Made by a program: the position numbers and the translations under genes
Notes under the pieces: generated by a model
Told to the model about the DNA's origin: nothing
Databases searched by the model: none
The model's input: the letters and a program-made list of their open reading frames with translations, nothing else
Virus record (IMG/VR): IMGVR_UViG_3300045125_000169
Span: 24,840 to 88,839 of that record
DNA from: a virus
Direction: 5' to 3' (one strand)
Length of the DNA stretch: 64,000 nt
Shown: positions 363-53,475 of the stretch, in pieces
Position numbering within the stretch: position 1 is the stretch's first letter
Layout of the letters: each line of letters starts with the position of its first letter

Positions 363-940
363 ATGAGCTTTCTGAAAGTCCTTGCAGACCTTTTATCCGA
401 CCGTGAGCGCGTCAAAAGAAACCAGAAAAGCGCCCAGAAAATAAAAGAGGCTTTGCGCAGCAAAAGTCCGTATCCTGTTTTTAGGTCGGAGGATAAAGAA
501 GTAAAACAGGAAGAAAAACACCTGTTCACAAAAAAGATAACGTCCTTATCCCCGAAAAATCTGCGCAGTCAAAGGAAAGAGGTGCGATTAGTATTCACCT
601 CGACATTTTGGATGAATTTGGAAATGTTCATTCATCGAATCGACCCATTACGACAATAACTTGTAGAAAAGACGAAATAATCTCTAAATTAAAAAAGTTG
701 GACGAAAAACTGAGGGTAAATATCGGTATTAGGATGGGGAATTGGTATGCAGGACACGATGGTAAAGATGGCATTTATACAGGCCATAGTACCAAGATAG
801 ACTTTGATGATGTCCCTTGGAATCTTTTCCCGAAAAGTACAAAAAAAGATTTCGAGGGAGAGACTAAAATTGAGGTGATGCCTGTCTTGGAATTGAAGTT
901 CTCTAAATTGACAGGGGACGAACTTTCACAAGTAGGTTAG
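363..940 (+). CDS. hypothetical protein (363..659 and 608..940 joined across an A-run indel)
   Basis: GGGAG RBS before ATG 363; the second frame is open from the A-run near 532 (KKDNVLIPEK...DEFGNV) to 940. Confidence 0.55.
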
Positions 941-952
941 TTCGGAGATCAC

Positions 953-1351
953 ATGCATAAGCAAGACGTACCAACCCATAGCATCTTTGTCGGTTATATT
1001 TTGTGGATTTTCGGGTTCACAGGTTCGCATAGGTTTTACTATGGCAGGCCGATCACCGGGACCATTTGGTTTTTCACCTTTGGTCTTTGCGGTCTCGGTT
1101 GGCTGTTCGATCTTTTCCTGATTCCGAGTATGGACGACAAGGCCAACCGAACCTATGTCCGAGGAAAACTGGACTACAACCTTGCGTGGCTTTTTCTCAC
1201 ATTCTTCGGAATGTTTGGTCTACACCGCATGTACATGGGAAAATGGATCTCCGGCCTGATCTGGGCTTTGACCGGAGGATTTTTTCTCCTTGGTTGGATA
1301 TACGACTATTGGACCCTGAACAGCCAAATTGATGAGATCAACGCTGGGTGA
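953..1351 (+). CDS. TM2/NINE-domain membrane protein (two TM2 repeats)
   Basis: Two copies of the TM2 motif: GYILWIFGFTGSHRFYYG and AWLFLTFFGMFGLHRMYMG; GGAG RBS. Confidence 0.9.
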   Translation: MHKQDVPTHSIFVGYILWIFGFTGSHRFYYGRPITGTIWFFTFGLCGLGWLFDLFLIPSMDDKANRTYVRGKLDYNLAWLFLTFFGMFGLHRMYMGKWISGLIWALTGGFFLLGWIYDYWTLNSQIDEINAG

Positions 1352-2174
1352 TTTTCTCATCCTCTGACTGAAAGTCCGAAAGACGCCCCTCTTGCAGATC
1401 TTGCAAACCACGATCGACTCTGGCTCTTGTTTCCTCTGACATGGGCACAAGAGACTCCCAATCGACCAAGGGTGTCATCGCCCCAACGTGCATGTGGGTG
1501 GCAAGTCCCGGCATAGGACTCAGACAAACTTCTTGGGTGTAAATTCTCTGGCTGAGAAGTCGGTCGTTCCAGTTGGGAGCACTGGCCCAAAGGGTTTCCC
1601 TGTGCTTCAGATAGGCTTCCTTGGAGCACAAAAAGGTATAGGTCGTGCTCGGGATTTGCCGCCAGTGGCAGTGGTCCGAGATCAAGATCAGGTAGCCGTT
1701 CAAGACCTTGCCTGTGTGCGGGTCTGGCCACATATAGCGGTCGGGATAATCCGGGGGATGAATAAAAAGGTGGTTTTCTCTCAACGGCCCCAGGTAGCGG
1801 GCTTTGTTCTCGTACATGTCCATCATGTAGGGAAGGGCCTGCGGGACAAACAGGTAGTCGTCTTCGCAAAAGAAAAGAATCGTGCCCTCAGGCTTACTGT
1901 CGGCAACCTCGAAGGTCTTTTCAATCGAGGGTCCGTTGCCAAAAGAACCGACGATGATTTCATCGACGTGGGGGCGAAAGAACTCTTGCCTCTCTTGGGA
2001 GAGACGGTCACCCACGACAATAATTTCTGTTTCCCCTTGGTACTCAGCCTTGGTCTTTAGGAGAGACTGAAAGCAGGTGTCGATTACCTGCTTTTTGGTC
2101 ATCCCAAAAGGTCTAGGAGTACCGTGTACGGCTTCGACCACTTCACAGGTTCGGAAGATGATGCAGAGTTTCAA
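1338..2174 (-). CDS. GT-A fold glycosyltransferase
   Basis: N-terminal IIFRTC strand, EIIVVGD, and FFCEDDYLF (DxD-type motif); AAGGAG RBS before the TTG start. Confidence 0.7.
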   Translation of the reverse strand: MKLCIIFRTCEVVEAVHGTPRPFGMTKKQVIDTCFQSLLKTKAEYQGETEIIVVGDRLSQERQEFFRPHVDEIIVGSFGNGPSIEKTFEVADSKPEGTILFFCEDDYLFVPQALPYMMDMYENKARYLGPLRENHLFIHPPDYPDRYMWPDPHTGKVLNGYLILISDHCHWRQIPSTTYTFLCSKEAYLKHRETLWASAPNWNDRLLSQRIYTQEVCLSPMPGLATHMHVGAMTPLVDWESLVPMSEETRARVDRGLQDLQEGRLSDFQSEDEKITQR

Positions 2175-2183
2175 GAGTGCTCC

Positions 2184-2206
2184 TTACTTACTTACTTACT
2201 TACTTA
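2184..2206. repeat. (TTAC)5+TTA simple sequence repeat; (TAAG)n on the coding strand
   Basis: ttacttacttacttacttactta directly visible, merging into the RBS of the glycosyltransferase. Confidence 0.95.
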
Positions 2207-2224
2207 GAAAAAGGATACACCTAG

Positions 2225-2455
2225 CTAGGTATGTTTTTCTTTCATTTTTTCTAAAAACGACCCAGCTATCCGATATTTATTTGCAAGTTTTTTTAACACT
2301 TCAGGATTTTTCAGTATCGCAAAATAATCCTCTTTGCTTATACCAAGGTAATCCTCTACTGATTCTGATGACGCAGATTTATGCCACGCATTAACTGCAT
2401 CCTCAAAATCATCAAAGGTTGCCGTGCCTTTTTTTATTTTTTCTATCAACTTCAT
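2225..2455 (-). CDS. hypothetical protein
   Basis: 76-aa ORF overlapping the upstream gene by 4 nt. Confidence 0.6.
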   Translation of the reverse strand: MKLIEKIKKGTATFDDFEDAVNAWHKSASSESVEDYLGISKEDYFAILKNPEVLKKLANKYRIAGSFLEKMKEKHT

Positions 2456-2733
2456 CTAAACTCCAAATATCTACCTTTTACAGGACCATTTTTTACATCA
2501 CCATTTGCATGGTATACGGCATAATGAGCTAAAGTCTTCACAGAAAACGCCTCAATTTCGCCATGTAATTCATCCCAAACAAGATAATAGGGATGAGCTT
2601 TTGATTTGTGTTTCCATACCTTTCTACCATGAGTGTCAAATTTACCTGTGAATGTTGATGTTTTTACAATATAGGAATCTGTAGGCATCGGTATTGTTGC
2701 TTCAATTTTCGTGCCAAGGTTACGCATTCTCAA
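2452..2733 (-). CDS. hypothetical protein
   Basis: 93-aa ORF in the operon direction. Confidence 0.6.
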   Translation of the reverse strand: MRMRNLGTKIEATIPMPTDSYIVKTSTFTGKFDTHGRKVWKHKSKAHPYYLVWDELHGEIEAFSVKTLAHYAVYHANGDVKNGPVKGRYLEFR

Positions 2734-2806
2734 TTACCCCAATACCCTAGAATCATATCGGAATTTTACCGAAAAATCGTGAATTTTCGGTTATGTGTCT
2801 ACTTTT

Positions 2807-3580
2807 TTACACTTCCATATCAACTTCTACTTCACCCTCATCCGTCATCACCTTGGTCTTGGTGGACTCTGGCTTGTAATAGGTGAGAGTCAGGTGGTTA
2901 GCGTCTTCTCCGATGGTGAAGTCCATCGACGACCCATCAGGGAAGTCCAGGGGCGCAATCGCCACACCGTCCATCTCCCGGTGCGTCCACTCTAGCTCGG
3001 GAAAGCGAATTTTGAGGTTATTTTTGATCTTCATGATATCGAGTTTTTCGTTCTCGTCTTTCGGGTTCCAGATATAAGTGGGCGGTTCGGGAAAGACCAT
3101 TTTGATATCAGGATAGACTTGCTTGACGGTGGACACTACGTCTTTAAAGAAAAGGTTTCTGGCAGAGACTTTGTAGGCCCGCATAACTTTCGTCAAAAAA
3201 CTTGAGCCCTCCGTGGGCTGTTTCTCGAAGGGACGCCTCTGCAAGTTCGTGATCTGGTCTAGGTTCGGGATGTCTAAAGCAGAGGGTTGAGAACCGCTAT
3301 CGTAAAGACCACCCTTGCCCTTAGGTTCATCTTTGGGGACTGTCTTGGGAAAGTTCAGCCCTTTATGAAAAAGGAGAACGGGGCGACCATCCTCTGTGAA
3401 CTCCACTTCATCGGTTCTTCCTGCGGGACCAGCGAAGCCAGAGGGTTCTCCAGCGGCCTGAGCCAACCGCGCTTTGGCTTGTTCGAGGGCCAGCCCAGGG
3501 TCGTCGGTGTGTTCAAGCTCTTCTGCGAGAGCTTGTGCCAGTTGGTCGAGATCTTCTAGCATGGTCAATCCCCCGATCAA
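2807..3580 (-). CDS. acidic hypothetical protein
   Basis: 257-aa ORF; the likely true start is MLEDL after a GGGG RBS. Confidence 0.7.
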   Translation of the reverse strand: MIGGLTMLEDLDQLAQALAEELEHTDDPGLALEQAKARLAQAAGEPSGFAGPAGRTDEVEFTEDGRPVLLFHKGLNFPKTVPKDEPKGKGGLYDSGSQPSALDIPNLDQITNLQRRPFEKQPTEGSSFLTKVMRAYKVSARNLFFKDVVSTVKQVYPDIKMVFPEPPTYIWNPKDENEKLDIMKIKNNLKIRFPELEWTHREMDGVAIAPLDFPDGSSMDFTIGEDANHLTLTYYKPESTKTKVMTDEGEVEVDMEV

Positions 3581-4984
3581 ATTAAATCAAAAAAGCTATC
3601 GATGGCATATTCACGATTAAAGTCGGTTGCTATACGCGGCCATTTGAAGGTGGGTTTATCATGGCGAACCATAACTTCATATACGTCTTTGTCTTCCTCT
3701 ATAATCTCGGGCACAAAAGGTAGAATCACTTTGAAAGGGAGAGCCAGCTTGATTTTGCTATCAGGCCAAAAACCCTCTTCATCGATTATGAAGAAGCAAT
3801 CGTCGTGAGGGGTGTCCGTGAAAAAATATTTAATATTCGCCCAGGCGTTAGCCTCAGTTCCTGCTTGCCAACCGTCATAAATCGCTTGGGACAATGCGGA
3901 ATCAAGCTCCTCCACGGCCTCTGTACTAAATTGGTGACTGAGCATATCCCGTACAACAGCCGCAGGTTCTGATTCAAATTTTGTTTTTACTTCGTCAACG
4001 TCTAGGTCCCATTGTTCGGCAAAGTTCTGAAGATCGTCCTGGGTAAATTTCTTGAATACATTTGCCATTTCTTTCTTGTCTGATACATCATCAAAAAAGT
4101 AAAGAATTTCATCTTGGTCTCTCGATTCAAAATTCGCCAATTCACTGTCATCAATAGTCGCTAAGAGGCTTTCGAGATCCGAGCTTTCATGTTTCGCATA
4201 GTCGGCAAGGTTATCCCACACCTGTAGAACAGCATCATCTCCAACCCACTCTTTCACGCCATGCTGCAAGAGCGTTTCTTTTGTGGCTTGTGGATTGCTT
4301 GTTAATTCCTCGATAAAGTCCACAAGGTCTTTACGAACACCTTTTGCGTTGAGCACCCCTGTTTTCGGTGTATCCCACTTGAATTTTGGCAACATGACAT
4401 CGCCACCGATCACAGGATCGTCCTCGATGTAGTTGACAGAGTAATGCCTGTCGGTAGCACTCCACGCCTGGACCTTACCTGCGGTGGACACTTCAAGAGC
4501 AACTTTGTAAAATGGATCATTAGGCTTACGAGTTTTCGAGATTAAAAAATAAAAGTGCGAGTCTCGGTTGTAGCGTCTCCAGTTGGACATGTCGTCTCGT
4601 GCCGAGATACACCATTTGGTGCCTGAGCCGTAGAGCTTCGATGCCTCGTAGCTCGTGATATGATAGACAACCCAGTTGTCGTCCTCGAACACTTGCTTGG
4701 CACCTTCCGTGCGAGCGAGTTTCTTTTGCGCTGTTTTAGACGTATTCTGGGATTGACTATCCATGAAGTCTTTGAACTCCTCCCAGGACTTTTTACCCCA
4801 ACTATCGATGTCGCGGTCGTCACCTTCAAGTTGATTGCGATCCCGTAAGGACTTGAATTTTTCCAGGTAGTCCTTCAGCACTTCGGGCGCTACCCCTTGG
4901 TCGAGAAATTTCTTCTCGACCGTCTTGAAGATCCGAGGTGACGAGAGTGTATTTGACTAAGACTTGGCTCAAGAACTTATACAT
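3577..4984 (-). CDS. GTxWC-family protein, paralogue 2 (unknown acidic C-terminal domain)
   Basis: Starts MYKFLSQVLVKY at 4984 and shifts frame at an extra A near 4931; contains WVVYHITSYEASKLYGSGTKWCI...YFLISK. Confidence 0.75.
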
Positions 4985-6136
4985 ACACTTTGCCTCCAAC
5001 TTTACATACCGCACGGACTTCTTCTTCAGTGAATTTTTTGGCGTTGTTCCTGCAATAAAAATCCCCACCAACCGTTTGAGGCGCTCCCTCAAGAGAGGTG
5101 AGGTTGTTGACGCTGCAATAAAAATCCCGACCAACCGTTTGAGGCGCTCCCTCAAGAGAGGTGAGGTTGTTGTTCCTGCAAGAAAAACCCCCACCAACCG
5201 TTTGAGGCGCACCCTCAAGAGATGTGAGTTTGTTGTCGCTGCAATAAAATCCCCACCAACCTTCGGAGGCGCTCCCTCAAGAGATGTGAGGTTGTTGTTG
5301 TTGCACTCAAAATCCCGACCAACCGTTTGAGGCGCTCCCTCAAGAGATGTGAGGTTGTTGTTGTTGCACTCAAAATCCCGACCAACCGTTTGAGGCGCAC
5401 CCTCAAGAGAGGTGAGGTTGTTGTCGCTGCAATCAAAACCCTCATCAACTTTTTGAGGCGCTCCCTTAAGAGAGGTGAGACCTTTCTCCGAGACATTAAT
5501 ATTTCCGCTACTATCGGCTTTCCACATCGGAGGTATTTTTAATTTAAAACTTGGTAGTTTTAAGTTGTTCGGTACGCTCTTATGATCCTTATCCGCTCGG
5601 TCCCAATATGTTTTATGTCCTTTTTTATTAACAAGAAGAGCTGTTTTAGACCAAGGGTCTTTCTGGTCTCTCGTCTTTGAGATTAGAAAATAAATCGTAT
5701 TATCGCTGTCATAGATATTCCAATGTTCACTTTTCTCATGTTTAATACACCACTCTGTTCCTTGACCGAGCTTATGAGATGCTTCGTTGGTCGTGATCTC
5801 GTACACCGTCCACTCGTCGTTCTCAGTAATAAATTCTGCTCCTGGGATGTTTTCTCTGAGATCAACTTTACCTTTTTTCTTTTCGGTAGAAGTCTTGGTT
5901 TTTTCCAAGTCCTCAATTCTTTCCTTAAACTCTTTAAAAGGCTTAGAGCCCCAAAAGTCGATATTTTTTTCATCGCCTTTAAGCTTATTGCGGTCTCTAA
6001 GCTTTTTGAACCGCTCTAAAGCATCCTTGACCTTTGACTTTTCAATCCCTTTGTCGAGAAATTTCTTCTCGACCGTCTTGAAGTCCGAGGTGACCAAAGT
6101 GTATTTGGCTAAGACTTGGCTCAAGAACTTATACAT
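4977..6136 (-). CDS. GTxWC-family protein, paralogue 1, with C-terminal LRR-like array
   Basis: WTVYEITTNEASHKLGQGTEWCI...YFLISK, then 7x LTSLEGAPQTVGxDFxCxxNN; restoring one T near 5250 gives a natural end KVGGKVYV* overlapping the next ATG. Confidence 0.8.
5040..5479 (-). repeat. seven 63-bp tandem coding repeats (21-aa LRR-like units)
   Basis: Units spaced 63 nt apart (e.g. gaggcgctccctcaagag at 5078 and 5141); 440 nt = 7x63 minus the 1-nt deletion. Confidence 0.95.
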
Positions 6137-6147
6137 TTCGGGCTCCT

Positions 6148-6483
6148 CTAAAATTTTTTACCATGCTTTGGTGGTCGCGTTTTGTTGAAAGCAATCTTGG
6201 CAACAATCGCCTCGGCAATTCGCCACTTTTGATTTTGCGACACATCCATGATGCGAATGATGCAATCGGCAAGCTCTTCTTCAACGCCTAAGAAACCTTC
6301 AATCTTGTCGGAGGGTGTTTCGGCACCAGCCCGGAGCGCCTCAAGAGCTTCCGACAACTCGGAGTGCATCAGCGCAACGGCTTCACCCAGGTTTCTCTCG
6401 CCTGAGTCGTACCACCCTTTGGACAAAGCGGTTTGATAAACATCCTCGGCAATCTTTTGAAAAGCTCTTATAAAGTCGTCCAT
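6148..6483 (-). CDS. MazG-like nucleotide pyrophosphohydrolase
   Basis: LMHSELSEALEA...VEEELADCIIRIMD motif; ends KIAFNKTRPPKHGKKF. Confidence 0.85.
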   Translation of the reverse strand: MDDFIRAFQKIAEDVYQTALSKGWYDSGERNLGEAVALMHSELSEALEALRAGAETPSDKIEGFLGVEEELADCIIRIMDVSQNQKWRIAEAIVAKIAFNKTRPPKHGKKF

Positions 6484-6484
6484 C

Positions 6485-7314: not shown

Positions 7315-7340
7315 AAGAGGCTCTCCTATCGCGATCCCCG

Positions 7341-8330
7341 TTACCGGATAATTTCCACACGAGGAGAGATAAGTTTTTTGAACTCATTCAGCCAGACTTC
7401 GGGTATTTTTTGACCGTAAATGATCTTCAAAAGGTAAGTGTCTTCTTTTTGAATGACCTCTACTATGCACTCAATTCTATTACGTCCTGAAAAGCCTACA
7501 GGGCTTAGAATCCGTAAAGTTTTATTCCAGTGGGTGTGCTTAACATACCGACGTGCGTGATTCAGAACCGTGTTGAGAGCATCGCGGTAGAGCCTTTCAC
7601 CCTCTGCGGCTGTTTGTTTTCTCAATTCTTCAGGGATATCCTCACCTTTTGGTAGGTGCTCGTTTATAAGCCGATCATAGTCCTCTTTCCAATACTCGTG
7701 GGATAAAATCCTTATCACCGAGGCGAGAAGAAGCTCGTGGAGTGCTTTGACAAATTTTGCACTCATGATCTTGGGAGCTAAGGAATCAGGGTTATTTCCG
7801 CCCAACTCCTCTCGGAAATTTTTTACAAAGGTATCTTGGATCTTTTTTCCTTCCGCGTCTCCCTTATAGAGGGAGAGCAAAACACCAGCCAAGACTGTGC
7901 GACTCCGACTGACGCGATACTCTGGCCCATAGAGGCCATCGAGGCAGCGTGTAATAATTCCCGTAAAGTCATCTTCATCGGGTACAGCGGTTTGTAGCTG
8001 AAGACGCGCCATCACGACGATCGGATTTCCACCGAATTTTCGGGATGTAGAGTTTGAGTAAGATATGCTCGTCATCACATTATTCGAGAAGTATACCCCA
8101 CCGTAGGACTTTCGTGATGGAGTCGTCGGACTCGCATCAGGATCTTCCTCTTTCCAAACTCCTTGTTTGGTCTGGGGTTGCAATCCTACTTTCAGAATTT
8201 TTTTGAGAAACGTCGAAGACGTACCGTGATAAAAGAGTTCCAAGGAAGACCTTGCAATCACCTTATACTTTTGGAAAGTATGCTGGTAAAATGCGCGTAA
8301 AGAATCCACCTTAGACTCCCATCCCGTCAA
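7341..8330 (-). CDS. ADP-ribosyltransferase-fold protein (HGT...GVYFS)
   Basis: FYHGTS...ILKVGL and YGGVYFS match the PARP/Tpt1-like NAD-binding core. Confidence 0.6.
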   Translation of the reverse strand: MTGWESKVDSLRAFYQHTFQKYKVIARSSLELFYHGTSSTFLKKILKVGLQPQTKQGVWKEEDPDASPTTPSRKSYGGVYFSNNVMTSISYSNSTSRKFGGNPIVVMARLQLQTAVPDEDDFTGIITRCLDGLYGPEYRVSRSRTVLAGVLLSLYKGDAEGKKIQDTFVKNFREELGGNNPDSLAPKIMSAKFVKALHELLLASVIRILSHEYWKEDYDRLINEHLPKGEDIPEELRKQTAAEGERLYRDALNTVLNHARRYVKHTHWNKTLRILSPVGFSGRNRIECIVEVIQKEDTYLLKIIYGQKIPEVWLNEFKKLISPRVEIIR

Positions 8331-11300
8331 ATTCGCTCAAGTCAAGACCCCTAAAGGAAACCTTGGCTTTTTCTTTGAATGCTTCCCACTCGGCAATTTT
8401 GAGCTTGGGATTCAGCGACTGAATTTTGCGCAGGAGATTGACCAGTTGTCCTCGGGTCACCTCACGCTGCCAACACGCAGGTTCGGCGATAAAGCCGTGG
8501 CCCTTGAGAACCCGCACCTCCATGTCCGATTCAATCAGGGTATCGACGTAGAGGACGGGAGCACCATCAAGTGTTGCGAAGTCAATCGCAACAGCACCTT
8601 TAACCGCAGACAGGACGGCTTTCTTGTCGCTTTTGGCTTTTTTGGTGACACCTTGCTGAACCCCAGGGGACGTAACGCGAATCCCACGCAGCGACTCCTC
8701 TAGTTCGTCCAGGTTGGTGATGTCCAAGTCCTGCTTGATCTTTTGAACCGCTTGGATCGCTGCCGTTTTATTGCGCGTTTGCAGATAGTAGTAGTCCCGC
8801 ATCAGGTTAAAACCAAAGCGTCTCAGGTAGCCCTGCGGGTCCACGGATCTAAAGCAGACCAAGTGCCAACCTTCGTTCCAGTTCTTAAGGTGGAAGATCA
8901 CCTTTTGCCCTGAGGGCAGAACAGGCTCAGGGGGTAGGTCGCTCAGTTCTTTCTCAACCATTTCCTCTTTGTCGCGCAGACGACCCGAGAAAATCCCAGC
9001 ACCTGGGACATGGGCCAAGATACGAGCGTCCTTGAAGACGGTATCGATACTTTCATAGCCGCGCAACTTGAGCAGCTTCTTACCGAAAAAGGCCGCTTCC
9101 TGATCGGCTTTTGCAGCAATCTGATCGTCGATCGCTTGGCGACGGTCTAGGTAGGAGAAAGCTGCTCGTCCTTGCGGAAGTCGGTCATGTTGCTGAGACT
9201 CATGGCCACAGGTTGCAACATGATCGTGTCTTCAAAATCGCTGTTAGCCTTGGCAATCAAATGCTCGGCAGAGGCAATCCTGGCCATCTTGAGCATTTCG
9301 GCAGTCCCCGACGCGAGCACTTGATGGACGTAGACATCACGCTTTTGCCCGATCCGCACGGCACGTCCTTCCCGCTGCGTCATATCTCCACTCATCCATG
9401 TAAGGTCACCGTGGATGATGCAGTTGGCAGACTGAAGGTTGTGGCCAGTCCTTAGGGTCTTATCCACGGCCACGAGGATTTGCACACCCTTATCGTTCGG
9501 GTCTTTGAAACGAGCTAGGGCATCAATCTTGCCACCCTCATAGTAGGCCGCGATCTCCTGCAAGTGCTCAGGGAAGTTTTCCAGGATGTTTTTTGCGCCA
9601 TCCTTAAACTGGACTAGAACCAAAACTTTGCCTGCGTCCGCTTTGGTCAAATGGTCTTGGGCGATCTCCGCAATCCTTTTAGCCTTGGGGCTCACCGCAT
9701 CATGAGTCTCTTTCAACAAAGCGTTGACCCAATCCTTCGAGGCCGAAGGAGAGTTGAGAAAGACATCGAGCGGCACAAAGCGGGCCAGGAGAGAGCCCAT
9801 GCCCTGAAGCTCTTCCTCATCGGAGTCCGCCTGAAACTTAGCAAGCAGCTTACCGAGTTTCGGATCGTTTTGAATTTCATCGAGGATGTTGCGCAGAATG
9901 GCATCGTAGGCTTTCTGCTGGTTTGGGCTCAGTTTGACGTAATGATATTTGCGGTGGACTTTTGGAAGAAGATGAGCCCAGGCTGATTTGCGCAACGAGC
10001 GCATCCCAAAGGACCGGAGAAGATCACGGATTTCTTTTGGAGCGTCCTCACGGTAGGCCGAGGGTGTCCCGTTGAGCGTAAAGCGGTTGAGAAATTCCTC
10101 CTGCATCCCGAAGACACCGGAATGGATCACGTCCATCGGCCCCATGACGTCGGCTGGGTTCCCTGGCATAATCGTTCCCGTCAACCCACGGACGACAGGG
10201 AGCTTGCCCAGGGCACTGGCCGCTGCACTTTGGTTGGACGTATTTTTCAGCGCGTGAACCTCGTCCATCCACACACCGTCGAGACTAAGCGTTGACATCA
10301 AAAGCTCAGGTCGGGTGAAGACCTTGATGGTCTTATAGTGGTCTTGAGCTTTCGAGAAGTCTCCCGTGGCCATTTCCTGGTAGTCGCGGGCAAGCCAATT
10401 ATACGACGTGAGAAATACGGTATTTTTCGGGGTCGCGGCAGCGTCTTTTAAAAAGGTTTCTAATTCACCGTCCTGCCAATTCCCGACCGACTTCGTGCTG
10501 ATAATCCAAGGATTCAGTTCTGAGAAAAGCCTGACTTCGGCAGCAAACTGCCCAAGCAAAGACTCGGGCATCACGACGATTGGTCGTTTGACCCGACCCT
10601 TTTTCATGTTTCTTAGGATGTCGCAGATAATAATCAGGGTCTTCCCGGCTCCTGGGTCGGCATCGATCAACATACGCTCACGCTCTTCGAGCGAGCCGAG
10701 CAGCATGGATTGGTGCGGGAAAAGCTCAACACTGGGTTTCAGTCCAGGCAGATCCCCTGCCCCGAGCGGCCCTTTGGCTGGTGTGAGCTTTTTTGAGCAG
10801 CTTGGCGGTCGAGGACTCTTTTCTCCACCTCTTTTTTTCTGCAAGCAGGCTTGGAGCTAGGACCGCAGTGATCGGAACCCCTCCCAGTTCAGGGGTCACT
10901 TCCATGCGGAAGACGAAGGATTGCTGGGCATACTCCTCGCGGTCTTGGTCAAGACGCTCAGGAAATTCCTCGTACTGCTCCACCATCTTTAGCAGGCGTT
11001 TTTTATCGTCGTCGTCCAGAGGTCGCATCCCTGGAAAATGCTCAGTCTGCCACTGGCCGCTAGACCCAATAAAGGACACCAGACCATCGGCTGTCACGTC
11101 ATAGATATCGCCCTTGTGAGCATCGAGTAAGGTGTGCGTTTCTTGGATTGCGGCATTTATCTTTTGAGCCTTTTCAGGCAGATTGTTCTTATGTGCTTCA
11201 AAGAGCTTTTCATAAAGGCTCTTTTGCTTGGCGGCTGTTTCCTTCAAGACTTTGGCAAACGGGCTCAGTTCAGGATAAAGGTAGACCCCGTGGTCAACCC

Positions 11301-11834
11301 CTTGACCTTCGAGGGGTCGAAGGTGCCCTTACCAAACACCGTGCTCTCGTGCGGCATGAGATACGGGAGTCGCGGGTCGATGGCCCTGTAGACTACCCCT
11401 TTGACTACGGCTAGAGGTCGATCATAGGCATCGGTCATGAGTTTGACCGAACCGATCTCAAGATAGGTCGGTGAGAGACGGGTTCCACGGAGCTTGAGGG
11501 TTTCAGCTTGCAGCTTATAAAAACGCTCGTCCCTTTTACATCGTCTTGATCGACTTCATGGTTCATCAGTCGAAAGGCGAACTGCGCTTCTTCGACAAAA
11601 TCGGCCTGATGCTGAAGACCTGTCATGGGCTCGTCTTTGAAGATCCCCGCTGCGGAAGAAAAAGACCCTTGGCCATCGATATAAAAGTAGAGCCTCTTCC
11701 CCTCTTTAAGGGCTTTGAGATCCTTTTGGCTTTCTCGGTTCCAGGGACTCACAACAAAGAGGGTGTTCGATACTTTAAGGTGATCGAGGCTAGGGCTTTC
11801 GTCAGCCGCAGGCTTTTGCCAGAATCAAGCGCAT
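8311..11834 (-). CDS. large SNF2-family helicase (~1170 aa, split into 5-6 ORFs by indels)
   Basis: 9147..10844 has DPGAGKT, DEVH, LTGT, GHNLQ and QREGRAVRIGQ; flanking ORFs 11435, 11148, 10726 and 8311 chain by frameshifts from MRLILA at 11834. Confidence 0.8.
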
Positions 11835-12644: not shown

Positions 12645-13634
12645 TCATGGATTTGTGGCAGATCTCAAGTACCATTCGACGGTCTTTTTAAGACCTGTTT
12701 CGAGAGTCTCTTGAGGCGTCCACCCAAGCTCCTTTTTGATCTTGGTCGCATCGATCGCGTACCGAAAGTCATGGCCTGGACGATCTGTGACGAAGGTGAT
12801 TTGCTCTTTATAGGAGGTCGCTTTGGGTTTGAGACAATCCAAAGTGTCGCAAAGAGTTTCCACCAACTCTAAGTTGCGACGTTCATTGTGACCACCGATA
12901 TTATAGCTTTCTCCAAGTCGGCCTTTTTCAAGGACCAGAACCAAAGCCCGCACATGGTCCTCGACATAAAGCCAGTCGCGGATATTATCGCCCTTTCCAT
13001 ACACGGGGATTGGCTCACCGCTCAGGGCTTTATGGATAACGTGCGGTATAAGTTTTTCCCTATTTTGATAGGGTCCATAGTTATTCGAGCAGTTGGTGAT
13101 GATGCCAGGAAACCCGTAAGTATGAAACCAAGCTCGTACCATAAAGTCTGAGGCCGCTTTGCTTGCCGAGTAGGGCGAGTTGGGAGCGTAAGGTGTCGTC
13201 TCGGTAAAGTAACCAGAATCCCCGAGAGTCCCGTACACTTCATCGGTTGAGACGTGGAGAAAGCGAAAATTCTTTTTGTCTGCTTTCTTGAGGTAGGCTC
13301 TCGTCTCTTCCAACAGAGTCGTCGTTCCTACGACGTTGTTTTTCACAAAGAGCGCAGGACCAGAGATCGAGCGATCAACATGCGACTCTGCCGCGAGGTG
13401 CATGATGGCGTCAGGCTCTTCGGCCTCTAGCAAATCTCTCAAGCCAATACGGTTACAGATATCGAGGATTTTGAGACTGTGCCGAGACGCGGGCAAACCT
13501 TCGAGCCCATCGAGATTTGCAGCATAGGTGAGCTTATCGACGTTGATGACATTGTAGTCAGTAGACTGAACTAAGTAACGCACCAGTGCCGAGCCGATAA
13601 ATCCCGCACCACCTGTCACCAGTATCTTTTGCAT
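12645..13634 (-). CDS. rfbB: dTDP-glucose 4,6-dehydratase
   Basis: [61 protein letters not shown]; GGGAG RBS before ATG 13634. Confidence 0.95.
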
Positions 13635-14126
13635 CTTAAACTCCCACCAACCTACAAAAATAATCGAGGTCTGATTCTTCTTTTCTAGTGAATCTAGCAC
13701 GGAAATAACTTCACATTGGAAAAGAATCGCGGCTTGTGCTGAGTTGACATTGCTCACTTGAAAATAAGACTCCTCTCGACTGTCCCCATCACCCATAGAA
13801 TCATAGATCTCTGCGTCGAGGTATCTTTGTAGGCAGCTTAAAGTCCATCCATCGTGACGATAAAAGCGTATTTTATAATTTGCACAACGAACAAACTTTT
13901 TACCCATGACAATTCTACGATATATTGTGATGTTTTCATCGATGCTATTGAGTTCTGAATCGATCTCTTCTACTCTTTTCTTTAAAGATTTTCTCCATAA
14001 GAAAAAGGGCGATCTACGAGAGTAGACCTCTCTTAGGATGATTGCCCGGTCAAAAAGGTTTTTTAAAAGTTCATCTTGGGCTTTGGTGACGCTGCGCTCA
14101 TAAGAAGGAATGGCTCGATCTAACAT
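13635..14126 (-). CDS. hypothetical protein(s) upstream of rfbB
   Basis: In-frame with rfbB in the track, but one extra T would place a TAA just before the rfbB ATG. Confidence 0.5.
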
Positions 14127-16048: not shown

Positions 16049-17053
16049 ATGTGTCAAAAACAGGAGACACATACTATGTTTATCCCACCTTTCTGCCCGA
16101 ACACGGATTGCGTCAACAACATTACTCCCGAAGGTAAATGGTACAAACGCAAAGGGTACTACCACCCGAAAACCAGTGAGACAAAAATCCCTCGGGCACA
16201 ATGCTACCTCTGCAATCTCAAGTTTTCAGAGGCTACTTTCAAGGACACCTACCGTCAGAAAAGCCGCATTTAAACGCTGAAATTTACCTTTGGTATACAT
16301 CAAGCGTAAGCCTTCGCAGACTAGCTAAAAATCTCAAGACCACTAGAATCACTGCGACTACAAAGTTTCGATTGCTCGCGGACAAAGCACGAGCCATTCA
16401 TGCCGTTGAAGTGGTCCAAGGCAACCTCAACACCGATGAGGTTCAATTCGACGAGCAAGAGTCCTTTGTGAAAACCAACAACCTACCTGTCTCAATCGCT
16501 ATCGCTGTAGATGGCCGTAAAATCCCGCGAAAAAACGGTGGCGGCAAGATCATTGATATCAAGGTCGGCACCATGCCCGCTCGCGGGCGCAACGCCAAGA
16601 AAAGCCAAGCTCAGTACGGTTTTCAAGAAGACGAGCGTCCCTATATTTGCAGAACCGTCCTCAACAATGTGCGTATTGCTACCATGGGTGGTGACATCAC
16701 GATAACGACGGATGCGAAGCCCGCCTACACAACCTATGTGCGAGATATGCTCCCGCTCGCAACCCACCAAATTCAATCGCAGTGCGGCAATGAAAGACGA
16801 CAGCTACAACCGTAAAGAGGACGATCCTCTCTGGTATATCAATCAGGCTTGCGCTGCCAATCGGCACGATATCAGTCGCATGAGACGTAAAACCTGTGTG
16901 ACTACGAAGCTCGTGTATGAATTGCAAAGGCATCTCTGGCTTTACGTTGCTCACCGCAACGGCTACGAGCGGGATCTTTTCGATCCATTCTTTGCGGTAA
17001 CTACACTGAGAGAGGCACGAGAAAGATTTTCTAGGGATGTTGCAAGACCCTAA
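16049..17053 (+). CDS. IS1-like DDE transposase (Zn-ribbon, HTH, DDE; two indels)
   Basis: PPFCPNTDC...CYLC zinc ribbon, SLRRLAKNL HTH, VQFDEQES, ITTDAKPAY, RMRRKTCVTTK. Confidence 0.8.
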
Positions 17054-17624
17054 AACAAATCTTCAGTGCTGTAAACAAACACCCTTTTTTTATAGTCGGC
17101 CTGAGAACCCCAAAAACATCAGCGGAGTTTACGACTAAAGATGGATCATTTAACTGAAAAAACTTGTTATTTTCATCTTTAACGTACACATGAATGTTTG
17201 CAGATAGAGCATGTTTAATCTGATTTTTTGAAACCTTTCTCCGTCTGGAGAATGTTCGGATGCGGAGACTACAACTTTGTAAGTAGGTAGCAGATATTTG
17301 AAAAGACAAAAGGCAGCAAGGGGCATCTGGTCTATTCTTATCGAGCGATAATCCTTATCACACCAAATATAACGAGACTCGACTCCAGGTGTCCTCACGA
17401 CCATAACCGATTGCCAAACATAGAAAAATTTAATTGGAAAATTGATATCTTCAGTTAAGAAAGCAAAGAAATTCTGACATAAGAGTAGTTTTCCTTCTGG
17501 TATTTCTTTTAGAACTTGATGCTCACTGTCAGTGATATCCTGTGCGGCTTGCTTATTTAATTCTGAATTTTCTTCAATTTTAGTGCGAGAAAAAGTTCAC
17601 CCGAAAGGGAGAACTTACAACCAT
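17031..17624 (-). CDS. IS passenger protein, unknown function
   Basis: The frame of 17150..17404 stays open upstream (EENSELNKQAAQ...) to a T-run next to ATG 17624, and continues into 17031..17309. Confidence 0.55.
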
Positions 17625-18003
17625 TTTAGCCTCTAATTTTTCAAGAAAACTCATTAAATTTACCTCAAATCTAATTAAAGTAACCTAAAAAGAAATTTAT
17701 GTCAATATAGACAGAAATAGTCAAGGTTTGAGCCTGGTTACCAGATCCAATCAACTAGGCTCCTTGTCAGAGTTTCAGTGCGCACGGAGATCGCGCAAGA
17801 ATATTTCGACCTTTCAGCAAAAGAATCAAAGAACAGTTGCAGAAAGCTGATGAGGCTCTTGACTGGTGTACTTATGACCAAAAATAGCCATATCACTCGT
17901 AATGCTAGGTCCATTCAACTAGGCCACCCTTCTTTGGTATTCATAGGCCAGTGACTTGCTGCCGCATGTAGCTCCCTCGCTTGGGAGTTTCGATATCCTA
18001 ATC

Positions 18004-18681: not shown

Positions 18682-18706
18682 GAAAGCTCCCACCTCGGGA
18701 GCTTTC
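18682..18706. terminator. bidirectional intrinsic terminator
   Basis: gaaagctccc-acctc-gggagctttc between convergent genes. Confidence 0.85.
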
Positions 18707-18735: not shown

Positions 18736-19167
18736 TTACAAGTTGAACTGGTGGGCGGGTACAGGGCTAAGGACAGCTTCGACAAATTTCAGTGTGGCTG
18801 CTTGCAACTTTTTAGGGTCGGGTTCGACAACAGGAAGGTTTTCTTTGAGAGCAACTTGAGCCGCAATTTCTTTTTGCTCACTAGCACCCCCCAGAGGTTC
18901 CTCCCAAAGAGCTTTCCATAGCATCGCCTTGGTGTAGTTTTTCGAGCCTTTCTTTCCTTTGTGATGCAGACGCAGATCTCCGTTCCAGGCTCGCAACTCT
19001 TGAAGCCAGTGGCTCCATGCTTCGGAGTTTTCGTAATGCACTACGAGAAAAAGATGCTTTGCAATCGAGATCTGAAGGCCCTCTAGCTTTTGAATGGCTT
19101 TCTTGCGGTTGAAAGCCATGGCGAGCATTTCAAAATACTTGGCTTGAATTGTTGTAAGAAAGCTCAT
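18736..19167 (-). CDS. DUF29-like helical protein, paralogue 1
   Basis: MSFLTTIQAKYFEMLA-MAFNRKKAI...IAKHLFLVVHY...HWLQEL. Confidence 0.55.
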   Translation of the reverse strand: MSFLTTIQAKYFEMLAMAFNRKKAIQKLEGLQISIAKHLFLVVHYENSEAWSHWLQELRAWNGDLRLHHKGKKGSKNYTKAMLWKALWEEPLGGASEQKEIAAQVALKENLPVVEPDPKKLQAATLKFVEAVLSPVPAHQFNL

Positions 19168-19304
19168 CCTAATCCGCTCCAACGGGTTCTCCATCAGTGT
19201 ATCGGAATTTTTCCTCGGATCTTTAGCTTTTAATTTATAAATAAAAACAGAGGCTTAGAACTACCCCTTGTCAATCACCTTCCCCTCTAGGTGGGTGGCT
19301 TTGG

Positions 19305-28906: not shown

Positions 28907-29269
28907 ATGTTTATCAAGAAGATTGAAAAAAAGATCAGAGTCCAAGCTACAGGTGAAATGACGCCCGAAGACCTGAGGCCAGGGGGCGACTTTTACGAGG
29001 CGGCTCAAAAACTGGCGAAGGTTGCCAAAGAGACTAAGCTCTTTGTGGCCGTAAAACCCTTCGATGTCTACCAAGGACCGTTTGCCCTGCTCAAAACAGG
29101 TGACCGCATTTGGCTCACGGACACACCGGGGAAATACTATGTCGAACTCATGTCCAAAAATAAGATGAAAGGACACGGCTTCGAGGGCAACGCTGCCATG
29201 ATTAAAAAATTCTACCTGCATCTAAAGCCCACGAAGCCTGTCTATCAGCATTTGAGGCTGGTGAAATGA
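28907..29269 (+). CDS. hypothetical protein; stop codon supplied by the IS605 end
   Basis: GGAG RBS; ends GTG AAA TGA, where ATGAA is the IS right end. Confidence 0.7.
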   Translation: MFIKKIEKKIRVQATGEMTPEDLRPGGDFYEAAQKLAKVAKETKLFVAVKPFDVYQGPFALLKTGDRIWLTDTPGKYYVELMSKNKMKGHGFEGNAAMIKKFYLHLKPTKPVYQHLRLVK

Positions 29270-31839: not shown

Positions 31840-32427
31840 TTAGACACATTGGATAAGCCTGTCAATATTTTTCAGACTGGTAGGTCGGATGCAAATTCTC
31901 TTAGCATCTCGTACAAGAGAAATTCCTCGTCCCAGTCCTGGTCGTGCGCCCGCCACACGCTTAAACTCATCATCGCTGACTTTTTTTGCTGCATTCAGAA
32001 AAAAATTTTTGGCCGTTGAGGTCACAGGCGAGCCGATCGCGTCACGACAGGCTTCGCGAAAAGCCTTCTTGCGGTCAAAGGTCGCTTTTGTTTTTGTGAT
32101 TTTTGGGTCGAGCATCTTCCGTAGGGGGCGGAGTAGCCGTTCAATCTCGGCATCCCAAGAGTGGTCGTAATTGATGAGCCGACCATACCGTTCAAAGGCA
32201 TATTCACCGAGCATACCGTGGAGACGGCTTGCGACGTTCGCCACCCAGGTATCCCTGGAAACGGCCATGCCTGTAATTTTTTTTAAATACGACAATCTAT
32301 TTCCCCAAAACTCCAGTTCATACCGATCCTCAGAGGACTCTTGCAATACCTCATCCGTGATCGGATTTTTTCTATGCACCCAAGCAGAATATAACTTTTT
32401 TGTATTTATTTTTTGCAGGATTTTCAT
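31840..32427 (-). CDS. DUF29-like helical protein, paralogue 2, with N-terminal extension
   Basis: KKITG-MAVSRDTW...GMLGEY...SWDAEIERLL; likely start MKILQKI at 32427. Confidence 0.55.
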   Translation of the reverse strand: MKILQKINTKKLYSAWVHRKNPITDEVLQESSEDRYELEFWGNRLSYLKKITGMAVSRDTWVANVASRLHGMLGEYAFERYGRLINYDHSWDAEIERLLRPLRKMLDPKITKTKATFDRKKAFREACRDAIGSPVTSTAKNFFLNAAKKVSDDEFKRVAGARPGLGRGISLVRDAKRICIRPTSLKNIDRLIQCV

Positions 32428-33675: not shown

Positions 33676-34334
33676 ATGTACTCTTCTTGGCTTTCAAAGG
33701 TTTATCAGCAATATCAAGCTGTTGCAGGAAAAGAATATAAAAACCCTCTGCTTGCCTGGGAGTTTGACCCCGATATCTACCACAAAGCCTTTGGTCCGGC
33801 TCTCCAAGCCCTCAAAGATGCAGACATTCCCTACGACCTTTTGCAGCACAGGCCAGACAACAGTTCTTTTCGGATGCAAGAACAGGGCTTTAACCTAAGT
33901 CCGAAAGCAAAAGGAAACGACTGGAGTCATGTCACTCTCGGCAGTTTTAGCCACCTTAAAGAGGAAGAATGGCCTTCAGTGTCTATAATTTAGCCAAGAC
34001 CATGGTCCCGACCTATACCGTATTAAGAGCAAAAATTCTCGACGCGCCCGCATCGGGTCTCAGCTATCTCGTTTTGAGCCTCGATCAACCGAAGCAGGAA
34101 AAGAATTTAAAAGAATTTCTTGCCTCTCGTTATCCAGATTTTTCGTCTTACGAGATGCGCGTCCACGCACCCATGCAACCGCATGTGTCGCTCTTAGGTT
34201 TTGCCAAAAAAGACGAAACTCGCGTGAAAGTCTTGCTCCCAAAAATCCAGGAAGCGGTCATCGGTGCAAAAATGCGTCCGAGCTATCTTCAGCTTTGGGA
34301 AAACTTTGTCGTTGCGAAACACTCTAAACTTTGA
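33676..34334 (+). CDS. 2H phosphoesterase (Acb1/LigT-like), one indel
   Basis: Two HxT/S motifs, WSHVTLG (33676..33993) and QPHVSLL (33969..34334), about 80 aa apart. Confidence 0.75.
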
Positions 34335-35732: not shown

Positions 35733-36251
35733 ATGCTACAGACATTTCTCAATCGTATAAAACAAAAACTTGATTTGCATAGCTTAAAAAATACTGATGA
35801 ACTAAGACAAAATGCTAAAAAAGTATCCGGTGATTCAGCTAGATATAATGAAATCGAATGTTTATCCAAATTAAGAAATGTTTCTGACGCTGACGAAGAG
35901 ATGGCATTGTCAATTTTATCGAGGCTTCTAGGACAACCCGAGGACGCTATTCAAGGGCGATTCTCAAAGGCTCTCAAACTAAGTAAAAAAATTACTCTTC
36001 CCGTAGGTGAAATTCAAAAGTTAGAATTTCTACACCAAGGAACTCTTGACGACGAGTACGGAGATGAGTGGAAGAATTGGGGACAATTAGACCTACCAAT
36101 AGTGGCCGAAATTGTAGACCGCCGAGTAGTTCTTGAGGGTAACCATAGGCTTAACCAAGCAATAAAGGATAAGCGTCCTATCAAAGTCAACCTAGTGACC
36201 ATTGACTGGGTTAAAAATTTACGGGGCGTACATAAAACACTTCGAGGATAA
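35733..36251 (+). CDS. ParB/sulfiredoxin-like domain protein
   Basis: LPIVAE....VLEGNHRL motif. Confidence 0.65.
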
Positions 36252-38531: not shown

Positions 38532-38986
38532 ATGATGAGTTTTATTGAAAAATCCAAGTCACGGGGATGGCGTTCCATCGTGACGACTTTATCAAAAAGT
38601 TTCGAGAACGCTTCGAGGGTTGCCTTAAAGAGTACACAAAGTTGTGGCTCGTCGAGCAACTTGACCTCAAAGACTTTTGGTCTGACGAAGTGACTCGATT
38701 ATCTAAAAGGGTCTATGGTCTCCTAGAACCTAAACAGACGAAGGTAAAAGGCTCTTGGAATCGGTACACCGCAGCAGCAGAGGCTTTTTTGGAAGCCTCA
38801 GAAGAGCAAATCAAACTGCACCAAGGCATTTCCGAGTTCAAAAACTATAGTTTTTACTCCGCTAAGGATTTGAAAAAAATCCATACATATTGGGCTAAAA
38901 ATACGCCCGACTCCAAAGATTTGGCGATGGAACTTGTCGTGAGGTTTTTCCCAGATCCTTACAAAAAAATCTGCTCAAAACCTTAA
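38532..38986 (+). CDS. DUF29-like helical protein, paralogue 3
   Basis: MSFIEKIQVTG (one A restored)-MAFHRDDF...GCLKEY...FWSDEV. Confidence 0.6.
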
Positions 38987-41152: not shown

Positions 41153-42177
41153 TATCTTAGCTTCCTTCTTAATTCATCGGAGCACTTAATTTTTGCAGGG
41201 TCATCAACAAAGATACAATTTCGCACTTTTAGCCCTACGGGCAGCGAGGTGATATTAGTCCCCTGGAGATAAAGACTACCGACGTCAAGATCCTTAGGCA
41301 AAGAGGTGATTTCGCTACCACTAAGATCGAGAAGACGCCCGACTTTTAGGCCCTCAGGCAAAGAAGTGATCTTGGTGTCCCTGAGTTCGAGAACACGCCC
41401 GACTTCAAGACCTTCGGGCAAAGATGTGATATCGGTGCCTCTAATGTTGAGGTCCCATTCGACCTTGAGTCCTTCGGGCAAAGAGGCGATCTTGGTGTGT
41501 TGCAGGTAAAGGTCTTCAGCGACTTTAAGATTTTTTGGTAAATTATTTATGTTCTCGTAGTGCTTACCATTGATCGTGATATGAGTAGGCGCTACTGTTT
41601 TAAATTTGGGAATTTGGAGATTTTGAGGCACTTCATCATGCGCAAAATCAAGAGCGTCCCAATAGGTTTTATCGCCAAAACGGTCCACCAAAACAGCGAT
41701 TTTTGCCCAACAAAATTTTTTCGGATCTAGCTTCTTTGATATGATGTAGTAAATATTATTATGAGCAACTTCCTCTTCATAATGCTCTCCATCTTCCTCA
41801 GTCAAACACCATTTCGTATCAGATCCATAAAGCATCGCAGCCTTGTGAGATGTGATCTCGTAAACTCTCCAGTCTTCGTTTTCCGCGATAAGTTTCGCAC
41901 CCTTAACCCTTGCTTGTTTTTTTCTCTTCGGTCTTAGTTTTTACTTTACTCTGTTTATCAACGAAGGACTTAAAGTCTTTGAAAGACTTTTTGCCCCAAA
42001 GGTCGATATTTTTATCATCGCCTGAGAGCTTATTTTTATCCCTCAATTCCTTGAACTTGGCGAGGTAGTCTTTCACCAAAGGCTTTTGAATCCCTTGTTC
42101 AAGGAACTTTTCTCAACCGTTTTAAAGTCAGAGACGACGAGATATTTTGATTTTACTTTGAAGAAAAAGTTCAACAT
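41152..42177 (-). CDS. GTxWC-family protein, paralogue 3, with ITSLPEGLKVG-type LRRs
   Basis: MLNFFFKVKSKYLVVSDFKTVEK...WRVYEITSHKAAMLYGSDTKWCL...YYIISK, then 5-6 repeats of about 20-21 aa; indels in the 5' part. Confidence 0.8.
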
Positions 42178-42193
42178 TTACGGCTCCAAAATA

Positions 42194-43010: not shown

Positions 43011-43018
43011 AAAATCTC

Positions 43019-43621: not shown

Positions 43622-43638
43622 AGAAAAGTACCCCTGAT

Positions 43639-44972: not shown

Positions 44973-44988
44973 GGGAATAACCTACATG

Positions 44989-52111: not shown

Positions 52112-52159
52112 GGTATCCCTTTGTTCAGCGGGGAATGGGAATTGAATCTTGGTCGTCTT

Positions 52160-52885
52160 TTAGAGGCTCACATCCAGGGCAACGGTCCAAGACTCATCAC
52201 CAACCCAGTATTTTTCAAGACGCAAGCCGACTTTTCGACTGAGTTCTAATCCTATCCCCGCGTTGACGTATAGTTTTTCATCGCGCTCATATTCAAAGCC
52301 TGAACCGAGAACGGTGAAACGAGCTTGACCCTCATTTTCTTCAAAGATAACTCGCTCGACGCGACCATAGAAATTGATTTTAGGTATACGGTAGCGCACA
52401 CCCGCACCACCTGTCACCATTTTAGAGTCAAGCTCAACCGTTAAGGGTCTATCCATGATGAAGTCGGTATTGAACTTCCAGTTTTCCTGGTTGTAGCGCA
52501 CAAGACCCAGCACATAAAAATCACGCAGAACTTGCCCACCGACGTCCAGACCAACATGAACCTGATGGCCGTAAGTGCCTTCGAGGTCCATCGGACCATA
52601 AAATCGACTGTGAGCAAGATGTCCCATACCGACGTTCACAGAGACGTTGGATGTCACAGGGGCAGAAATTCCAAGATGGCCTCCGAGACCTTCCACTTGA
52701 AACTCAGTGTCACTGGGTCCTATATATGATCTATTGAGGTTTTGCAGGGCCGCAGTGACAGTCGTTTGCTCCGGCAGCAGTGGTGTAAAACCAAAAGCAC
52801 AGGAATTGTAAGACACAAGTCCTTGCATGGTAAACATCAAGATGACGCTGAGAATCAGCCGCATAGATTCCTCAATGTGTGGCAA
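52160..52885 (-). CDS. outer-membrane beta-barrel-like protein
   Basis: Signal peptide; alternating amphipathic strands (VNVGMGHL, GAGVRYRI, NAGIGLEL); C-terminal WTVALDVSL. Confidence 0.6.
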   Translation of the reverse strand: MPHIEESMRLILSVILMFTMQGLVSYNSCAFGFTPLLPEQTTVTAALQNLNRSYIGPSDTEFQVEGLGGHLGISAPVTSNVSVNVGMGHLAHSRFYGPMDLEGTYGHQVHVGLDVGGQVLRDFYVLGLVRYNQENWKFNTDFIMDRPLTVELDSKMVTGGAGVRYRIPKINFYGRVERVIFEENEGQARFTVLGSGFEYERDEKLYVNAGIGLELSRKVGLRLEKYWVGDESWTVALDVSL

Positions 52886-53246
52886 CAGTCTGCTCTAGCT
52901 TCTTACCCTCATAGCTCGCGTATGACCCCGGTAGTTTGAATCTCACAAACGTATAGCCGACCTTCGTTTCACCTTGTTCATCTTGAGACGGTTGCATCAA
53001 GAGACAAGCCTGTTCGCGCACGTTTTCCGAGAGTTCTTCGGAGTTGGCAACAATCTTAAGCTCACCGTTTTCCTGCTCCAAGATGCGCTCGTTGCGCAGG
53101 AAAATCGCCATTTCGATTTCGCACGTCTCGGTGTCGAAGTAAGTGACGTAGGGAATCACTTGACCTGTGCAGTCATGGACTTTGTATTTAAAAGAGTCTG
53201 GGCTATTGCGGCTGATAATCACAGTAATACCTCTTTGAGAGTTCAA
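52872..53246 (-). CDS. hypothetical protein
   Basis: 124-aa ORF. Confidence 0.6.
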   Translation of the reverse strand: MNSQRGITVIISRNSPDSFKYKVHDCTGQVIPYVTYFDTETCEIEMAIFLRNERILEQENGELKIVANSEELSENVREQACLLMQPSQDEQGETKVGYTFVRFKLPGSYASYEGKKLEQTVATH

Positions 53247-53475
53247 TCATCGAGTTTGATATGTGGGAATAATTCCACCATAACATCATTCATGATGGCC
53301 GCAAGTATTTCTGCGGCCCCAATGTCTGGATATTTGCTATCGTAATGTCTTACGGTTTGAACCAAGTTTGTGGCGGTTTGTTGAAACTTGGTTTCTCTTT
53401 AAGAAGTTCAAGAATATTGAACTCCTCGTCCTCAAGTTCTTTTGCGACAATTTTCACGCGCTCAAGAAAACCCAT
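53247..53475 (-). CDS. small hypothetical protein (one indel), missing from the track
   Basis: MGFLERVKIVAKELEDEE after a GAGGAGG RBS; the second frame ends FPHIKLDD*. Confidence 0.5.

Follow-up and report, generated by a model that had tools for sequence, protein, structure and literature searches.

We analysed a 64,000-nucleotide (nt) stretch of viral DNA, bases 24840-88839 of the 109,145-bp IMG/VR record IMGVR_UViG_3300045125_000169 (hereafter the window), and found a shared short peptide, here called the tag, at the N-terminus of about eight to ten small, otherwise unrelated proteins encoded in this record and in its closest relative. Its core, M-S-F-[LI]-x-[KR]-[LIV]-[EQ], represents a real but modest signal. 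This partly confirms a preliminary description of the window, which had proposed an amphipathic leader on about a dozen unrelated proteins and had read it as a code for packaging into the virion. A shared N-terminal peptide indeed stands on several proteins without detectable similarity between their bodies, whereas the term "unrelated" was overstated for the proteins listed. In the following, genes are named by the window position of their start, and positions prefixed with G000:C1 lie in the record outside the window.

Statistical evidence for a narrow tag

As controls we used 80 metagenomic phage loci that were passed through the identical open reading frame (ORF) pipeline. Starts of the form MSF[LI] were enriched in comparison to these controls (6/254 starts versus 3/1323, p = 9e-4), and the six observed starts compare with 0.11-0.16 expected from the amino-acid composition. 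The 45 kb of the record that lie beyond the window, on which the preliminary description had not drawn, showed the enrichment as well (5/82, p = 3e-5). Three of these five outside starts belong to good small genes and one to a fibre gene, and the fifth is probably non-coding. Moreover, a six-frame scan of the whole record gave 27 ATG codons that open M-[SAG]-F-[LIVS], and roughly half of them are gene-like starts with a Shine-Dalgarno site.

Similar results were obtained with a motif-free test, in which non-paralogous pairs of N-termini were compared over residues 2-10 and counted at a BLOSUM62 score of at least 15. This yielded 19 pairs versus 5.6 expected, a number that none of 500 shuffles reached, and all top pairs were N-termini of the MSF/MAF type. 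The pattern that had originally been put forward, M-x-[FI]-[LI]-x-[KR]-[IV], was not enriched (3/433 ORF starts versus 4/2141 in controls, p ~0.1). In a leave-one-out profile, 5/10 core members scored above all 1323 control N-termini. Positions that had not been used for picking the members were examined in 12 tagged starts: residue 7 was hydrophobic in 12/12, residue 6 was K/R in 7/12 versus 1/9 control MSF-type starts and residue 8 was E/Q in 7/12 versus 0/9. By BLASTP the bodies of the tagged proteins are unrelated to each other, except for two weak pairs.

Conservation of the peptide and codon use

The orthologues of the tagged protein 19167 (n=3, 74-91% identity) keep M-x-F-[LI]-x-x-[IV]-Q-A-K-Y. 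Between the window and the closest related contig (L006) this gene shows 58 synonymous versus 48 identical codons. Four of the synonymous changes fall within its 16 tag codons, and upstream of the gene the two DNAs are unrelated. That the peptide was kept through synonymous change and next to unrelated upstream DNA indicates that selection acts on the peptide. Besides, the tags resemble each other in their codons. Serine at residue 2 is encoded by AGY in 8/9 tagged versus 4/13 untagged genes with Ser2 (hypergeometric p ~0.01), phenylalanine by TTT in 9/9 tags of this genome and Leu4 by CTK in 6/6. This uniformity fits common descent of the tag module or a constraint at the mRNA start, and the AGY excess at Ser2 suggests that the tags share descent as a module.

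In L006 the tag is present on 3/20 genes, including those of an ArdA protein and of a 386-aa protein. The L006 ArdA matches PF07275 with 73.5 bits (cut-off 27), its residues 22-172 corresponding to profile positions 1-149 of 155. Since the match starts at residue 22, the tag of this protein is an extension, and residues 1-21, tag included, represent an add-on before a complete domain. Other stand-alone ArdA proteins have different short extensions, one of them starting with MGFLGDVKK. The closest homologues of the phage ArdA (P0134-P0200) are C-terminal modules of 540-1478-aa proteins; the N-terminal parts of these fusions gave no Pfam match, and no link to this genome was found.

Possible functions of the tag

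In the reading that we favour, the tag, M-[S>G,A]-F-[LIV]-x-[KR]-[LIV]-[EQK], would open an N-terminal helix of ~10-16 residues; it is found at the start of eight or more small proteins whose bodies are unrelated (363, 17654, 19167, 38535, 53475, weakly 55068, and three outside the window). It would be transferable and would be read by one common partner. We propose such a lineage-specific tag with a common partner only tentatively, at less than even confidence. A partner that acts in turnover, as a chaperone or in modification is, taken by itself, unlikely. The likeliest single destination would be the assembling virion, in a manner similar to the capsid-targeting sequence (CTS) of phage T4 and without a recognisable cleavage site, and we regard this virion-loading version as quite unlikely. 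Spelled out, it would mean that an 8-11-residue tag, MSF[LI]xK[LIV]E, which is unrelated to the T4 CTS and is not removed, loads a changing set of accessory proteins, including the DNA mimic ArdA, that enter the host cell together with the DNA; to this scenario, too, we give little weight.

In T4 the CTS MKTYQEFIAE is located on the internal proteins IPI-III and Alt and is removed by the head protease gp21 (PMC3012670, PMC9958956). Anti-restriction proteins are known as cargo, in T4 via the CTS and in P1 by a route of its own (PMC3012670, PMC9024508). In phiKZ and SPN3US, propeptides of head and ejection proteins are cleaved at S/A/G-x-E (PMC5694885, PMC10052503), and PaBG, which belongs to the nearest characterised terminase clade, has proteolytically processed virion proteins (PMC7412058). 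For the phage studied here, the tagged ArdA of L006 and the position of 5/9 tagged genes inside co-directional blocks of structural genes or at their end provide a weak, circumstantial link to the virion. The head protease families PF03420 and PF04586 (S77/S78) gave no match in the 109-kb record, which is ~53% complete and whose proteins are mostly invisible to Pfam. A gp23-type capsid gave no Pfam match in the record either, and the PaBG capsid and its neighbouring proteins gave no tblastn match in it. The residues that follow the tag helix vary (AK, TG, SS, AG).

Several observations speak against a tag with a common partner, and against virion loading in particular. The incomplete record yielded no gene for a head protease, a scaffold or a capsid, the 11 tags inspected have no L/I-x-E site at a constant position, and the S/A/G-x-E site of the phiKZ/SPN3US type is absent from the tags. 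Among the tagged proteins we found none with a homologue known from a virion proteome. Upstream of the tagged genes there is no shared k-mer or promoter-like element. Among 30 genes of L009, a more distant relative, no more than one has a tag-like start, and together with the T4-like contig L008 the figure is at most one or two in 30-35 genes. The motif itself is short and degenerate, with ~8 informative residues and few members. Its core was defined after the data had been seen, though it was upheld on unseen sequence. Finally, several tagged ORFs are cut off by frame changes, which leaves their bodies uncertain.

The strongest alternative is an inherited gene-start module without a dedicated partner, in which new small accessory genes arise on, or recombine with, existing 5' ends and the module is kept because it favours translation initiation and caps the N-terminal helix well (Ser as N-cap, Glu at N3). 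S-x-x-E is the classic helix capping box, and both this motif and the anchoring of the tag at Met1 would suit such a module. The codon uniformity described above exceeds what the peptide demands, and the 91-nt 5' cassette of the FKTVEKKF paralogues (see below) indicates that 5' ends have been exchanged in this genome. On the other hand, sheath, portal and terminase do not carry the tag, and the lack of a tag on such structural genes, which need high expression, argues against a general start-codon context as its cause. MSF[LI] makes up just ~0.2-0.6% of the starts in the 80 control loci. Tags and orthologues agree in residues 6-8 although synonymous sites are nearly saturated, and nucleotide identity between tags ends by ~12 nt. 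Overall, we consider the gene-start module possible, if somewhat doubtful.

Chance resemblance combined with paralogy and ORF-calling artefacts, with no shared feature at all, would explain why the original pattern lacks enrichment. It would also account for the 6/13 listed examples that fall into two paralogous families (4984/6136/42177 and 19167/38535/32427), for one example that is spurious and for the several ORFs that are short or have a low coding score. Moreover, the MAF/MSF start of a fibre family is conserved domain sequence. Against this stand the pair test, which is still significant with paralogues excluded, the recurrence of the signal outside the window and in L006, and the leave-one-out scores, which hold; this explanation is disfavoured and appears improbable. 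Membrane targeting by an N-terminal amphipathic helix is highly improbable: the tag is N-terminal, predicted to be helical and has the M-S-hydrophobic-x-x-K pattern of known membrane-targeting sequences (SepF, MreB), but its hydrophobic moment is ordinary (0.17-0.56 versus 0.32 +/- 0.18 in other genes), so that the leader is not notably amphipathic as had been stated, and most core tags have a net charge of 0 to +1.

Tagged and marginal proteins

The features of the window are compiled in Table 1.

Table 1. Tagged, marginal and excluded N-termini of the window. Tail, fraction of control N-termini in whose upper tail the profile score lies.
Position	Strand	N-terminus and status	Details
363..659	+	Tagged ORF, weaker member; MSFLKVLADLL	98 aa; ATG, GGGAG Shine-Dalgarno site
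17580..17654	-	Best tag match, without body; MSFLEKLEAKMVVSS...	24 codons; profile score 21.6, above all 1323 controls
18736..19167	-	Tagged gene; MSFLTTIQAKYFEMLA, then a second Met (MAFNR...)	143 aa
38535..38986	+	MSFIEK start, then paralogous core in another frame	Start ORF 38535-38693; core 38567-38986, IQVTG-MAFHR
53350..53475	-	Tagged ORF; MGFLERVKIVAKE...	41 codons; strong GAGGAGG Shine-Dalgarno site; 0.45% tail
54937..55068	-	Weak member; MAFVEKFGRR...	43 codons; 1.6% tail; next ORF 54269-54949 in another frame
28907..29269	+	Marginal member; MFIKKIEKKIRVQATG, without tag residue 2	0.4% tail, only with an offset allowed
2225..2455	-	Marginal member; MKLIEKIKKGTA	1.2% tail
31840..32427	-	Non-member; MKILQKINTKK	Paralogue of the 38567 core; 14% tail
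33676..34334	+	Non-member; 2H phosphoesterase split over two frames	HVT and HVS motifs; 3% and 17% tails
35733..36251	+	Non-member; 12 protein letters not shown	3% tail
4826..6136	-	Non-member; FKTVEKKF/GTxWC-domain protein	436 aa; first 18 residues are domain sequence; 3% tail
3577..4984	-	Paralogue of 6136; ...QVLV, not ...QVLA	Out of frame after 18 codons by a 1-nt insertion
41903..42177	-	Third paralogue, fragmentary and frameshifted	34 codons; continues only in other frames

The ORF at 363 has a coding score of -8.7, and its leave-one-out score lies in the 1.2% tail of the controls. The one at 17654 is either a relic or a micro-ORF. It is followed on its 3' side by ~800 nt with stops in all frames (16815-17650), a stretch that looks like a decayed gene or non-coding DNA, and the contig of the closest relative has another gene at this place. 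At 53475 the reading resumes in two other frames down to 52872.

For protein 19167, an AlphaFold2 model built from four sequences shows residues 3-16 as a helix with low confidence (predicted local distance difference test, pLDDT, 58), and at this value the model of the 143-aa family was too poor for a fold search. Terminator-like hairpins flank the gene on both sides (18682-18706 and 19249-19268), and it therefore looks like a self-contained, moron-like transcription unit. The MSFIEK start at 38535 leaves the frame, and IQVTG is read only after one A is added to an A5 run. The core at 38567 is related to 31840-32427 (BLASTP E 4e-6). Together, 19167, 38567 and 32427 form a weak family whose core opens with MAF/V-x-R behind N-terminal extensions that differ in length, and the extension of a homologue in locus L030 is different again. 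The preliminary description had called 19167, 28907 and 38535 DUF29-like paralogues. No Pfam family, PF01724 included, matched them at E <= 0.01, and the kinship applies, weakly, to 19167 and 38567 (and 32427), whereas 28907 has no detectable relation to them.

Outside the window, the tag is found on genes at G000:C1:4848, 23838 and 24579, encoding 110, 91 and 99 aa. The 99-aa protein matches DUF4314; for the other tagged proteins Pfam and PHROGs returned nothing useful. The tagged gene between terminase and portal is unrelated to PaBG gp107.

N-termini that do not belong to the tag

Of the 13 peptides listed in the preliminary description, ten were found as written in the six-frame translation (363, 2455, 6136, 19167, 28907, 32427, 33676, 35733, 42177 and 53475), whereas those at 11834, 38535 and 4984 were not. 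About four of the 13 are solid and two are marginal; the remainder comprise one 10-codon ORF, one case that needs a frameshift, three domain-borne paralogues and others that look like controls. In all, about half of the 13 are not members. Profile scores in the 3-53% tail place 32427, 35733, 33676, 6136, 42177 and 12322 among the non-members. As had been described, nrdA and an rfbB-like gene lack the leader.

The effectors to which the leader had been attributed turned out not to bear it. The SNF2 helicase gene spans 9147-10844 and has no such start. MRLILAKACG at 11834, considered as its start, is a 10-codon ORF (11802..11834, minus strand) followed by several stops. The N-terminus of the 2H enzyme is indistinguishable from control N-termini. 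Its second half, at 33969, starts with MAFSVYNLAK and resembles MAFSVTTLAK of a truncated fibre copy (pair score 29), a likeness that may be due to chance.

In the leucine-rich repeat (LRR)/GTxWC proteins, which had also been counted as leader bearers, the N-terminus belongs to a conserved domain and also precedes internal copies of it. The three members 6136, 4984 and 42177 form one family (phrog_28193/17056). Protein 6136 matches phrog_28193 from residue 10, and its homologues retain M-x-x-F-x-x-x-V-x-x-K-Y-x-x-V-x-x-D at the N-terminus. In 80 metagenomic loci a hydrophobic-x-A/S-D pattern is kept just before the FKTVEKKF block, also when the domain is internal to a very long reading frame and preceded by more than 1,400 codons. 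The presence of this pattern before internal domain copies shows that the N-terminus of the family is part of the domain and not a detachable leader. We considered the "ILED" before FKTVEKKF in the L008 homologue as a gp21 site and rejected it, since x-x-A/S/E-D also precedes internal copies. Similarly, "KY-x-VV-S-S/D" was rejected as the second half of a longer leader because it is domain sequence in the FKTVEKKF family; its counterpart in ArdA corresponds to an S/T-rich linker located within longer homologues.

The tandem paralogues share a near-identical 5' cassette of 91 nt (6046-6136 and 4894-4984), which differs by four substitutions and one inserted base. The remaining parts of the two genes have diverged, and this contrast suggests that gene conversion took place at the 5' ends of 4984 and 6136. 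The FKTVEKKF/GTxWC family is widespread in metagenomic phage contigs (loci L010-L089), with varying C-terminal parts, and the domain sometimes occurs in tandem within very long reading frames (L013). In L008 a gene of this family lies between gp23 and gp13. A further paralogue of 549 aa (P0125) is encoded on a 351.6-kb contig, outside this record.

Outside the window, MSFLTTTLAKAAFKK opens a 427-aa protein of a fibre family, >20 homologues of which retain MAF-x-x-T-x-LAKAAFKK. This conservation shows that the MSFLTTTLAKAAFKK start is domain sequence and not a tag. The fibre N-terminus resembles the tag of 19167 at 9/11 residues despite different Ser codons. At G000:C1:12115-15238 a 107-aa gene and the fibre gene are duplicated in tandem, the second fibre copy being cut to 63 aa.

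Genome context

The IMG/VR record is labelled as a provirus, with an estimated completeness of ~53%, and proteins identical to those of this record are also encoded on a 351,605-bp contig. It codes for a large terminase, a 1146-aa portal, a tail sheath and many fibre-like proteins, and Pfam matches almost none of its proteins. The terminase is 27-34% identical to those of the jumbo myoviruses PhiXhv-12, Lu11 and PaBG. The source is an uncultured large myovirus with a terminase distantly similar to those of Lu11 and PaBG. No close DNA match was detected among GenBank phages (megablast, 20 kb), and relatives were not found in IMG/VR scans by the terminase and by the 143-aa family of 19167.

Essential genes are broken by frame changes, namely the terminase (852 + 216 aa, G000:C1:1269-4480) and the tail sheath (433 + 294 aa, G000:C1:19310-21456). 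Other frame-split genes lie in the window at 33676-34334, 3577-4984, 41903-42177 and 52872-53475, and the frame change at 4930 is a 1-nt insertion outside any homopolymer. Given these split genes, terminase and sheath included, the record either is rich in indels or represents an element in decay, which bears on the tag since several leaders are located on truncated ORFs.

In the portal (G000:C1:5192-8629) the profile covers residues 62-545 of 1146, so that a C-terminal extension of ~600 residues lies beyond the match. For the 433-aa protein after the portal, an Atlas look-up gave fibre-like leads only. Window positions 7341-8330 have a weak match to the catalytic domain of poly(ADP-ribose) polymerase (PARP; 23.5 bits, under the cut-off), and 12645-14126 encode a GDP-mannose 4,6-dehydratase with a 168-residue N-terminal extension.

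Significance and comparison with known systems

If the tag were an address label, it would be a further independent example of how large phages load cargo, and candidate injected counter-defence proteins such as the tagged ArdA could be listed from sequence. If it were a gene-start module, it would show how small phage genes come to be built on 5' ends that are already there, and that short N-terminal resemblances need empirical controls before they are read as sorting codes.

Among known N-terminal signals, the ClpX recognition motifs of Dps and lambda O consist of polar-hydrophobic-hydrophobic-x-basic-hydrophobic residues right after Met1, and the tag resembles them only loosely. Encapsulation peptides of bacterial microcompartments are short helices at the N-terminus of unrelated proteins, and the linker behind them is poorly conserved. 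The tag shares with them the short helix and the variable linker, which makes them a functional analogy. In contrast to the tag, these peptides are clearly amphipathic, are not anchored at Met1 and serve a different shell system, for which no shell genes are present here. The phiKZ/SPN3US system is similar in that a large myovirus might package accessory proteins; its propeptides differ from the tag in being long and in having nothing in common except the cleavage motif, which the tags lack. Compared to the T4 CTS, the tag has no sequence similarity, no L/I-x-E and a far more degenerate motif, and no S77 protease was found. Nevertheless, the narrow core, and this core only, is like the T4 CTS in its length of ~10 residues, its location at the extreme N-terminus and its presence on proteins that are mostly small, otherwise unrelated and encoded by a single phage lineage. 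Moreover, the tagged ArdA of the relative is, like T4 IPI*, an anti-restriction protein.

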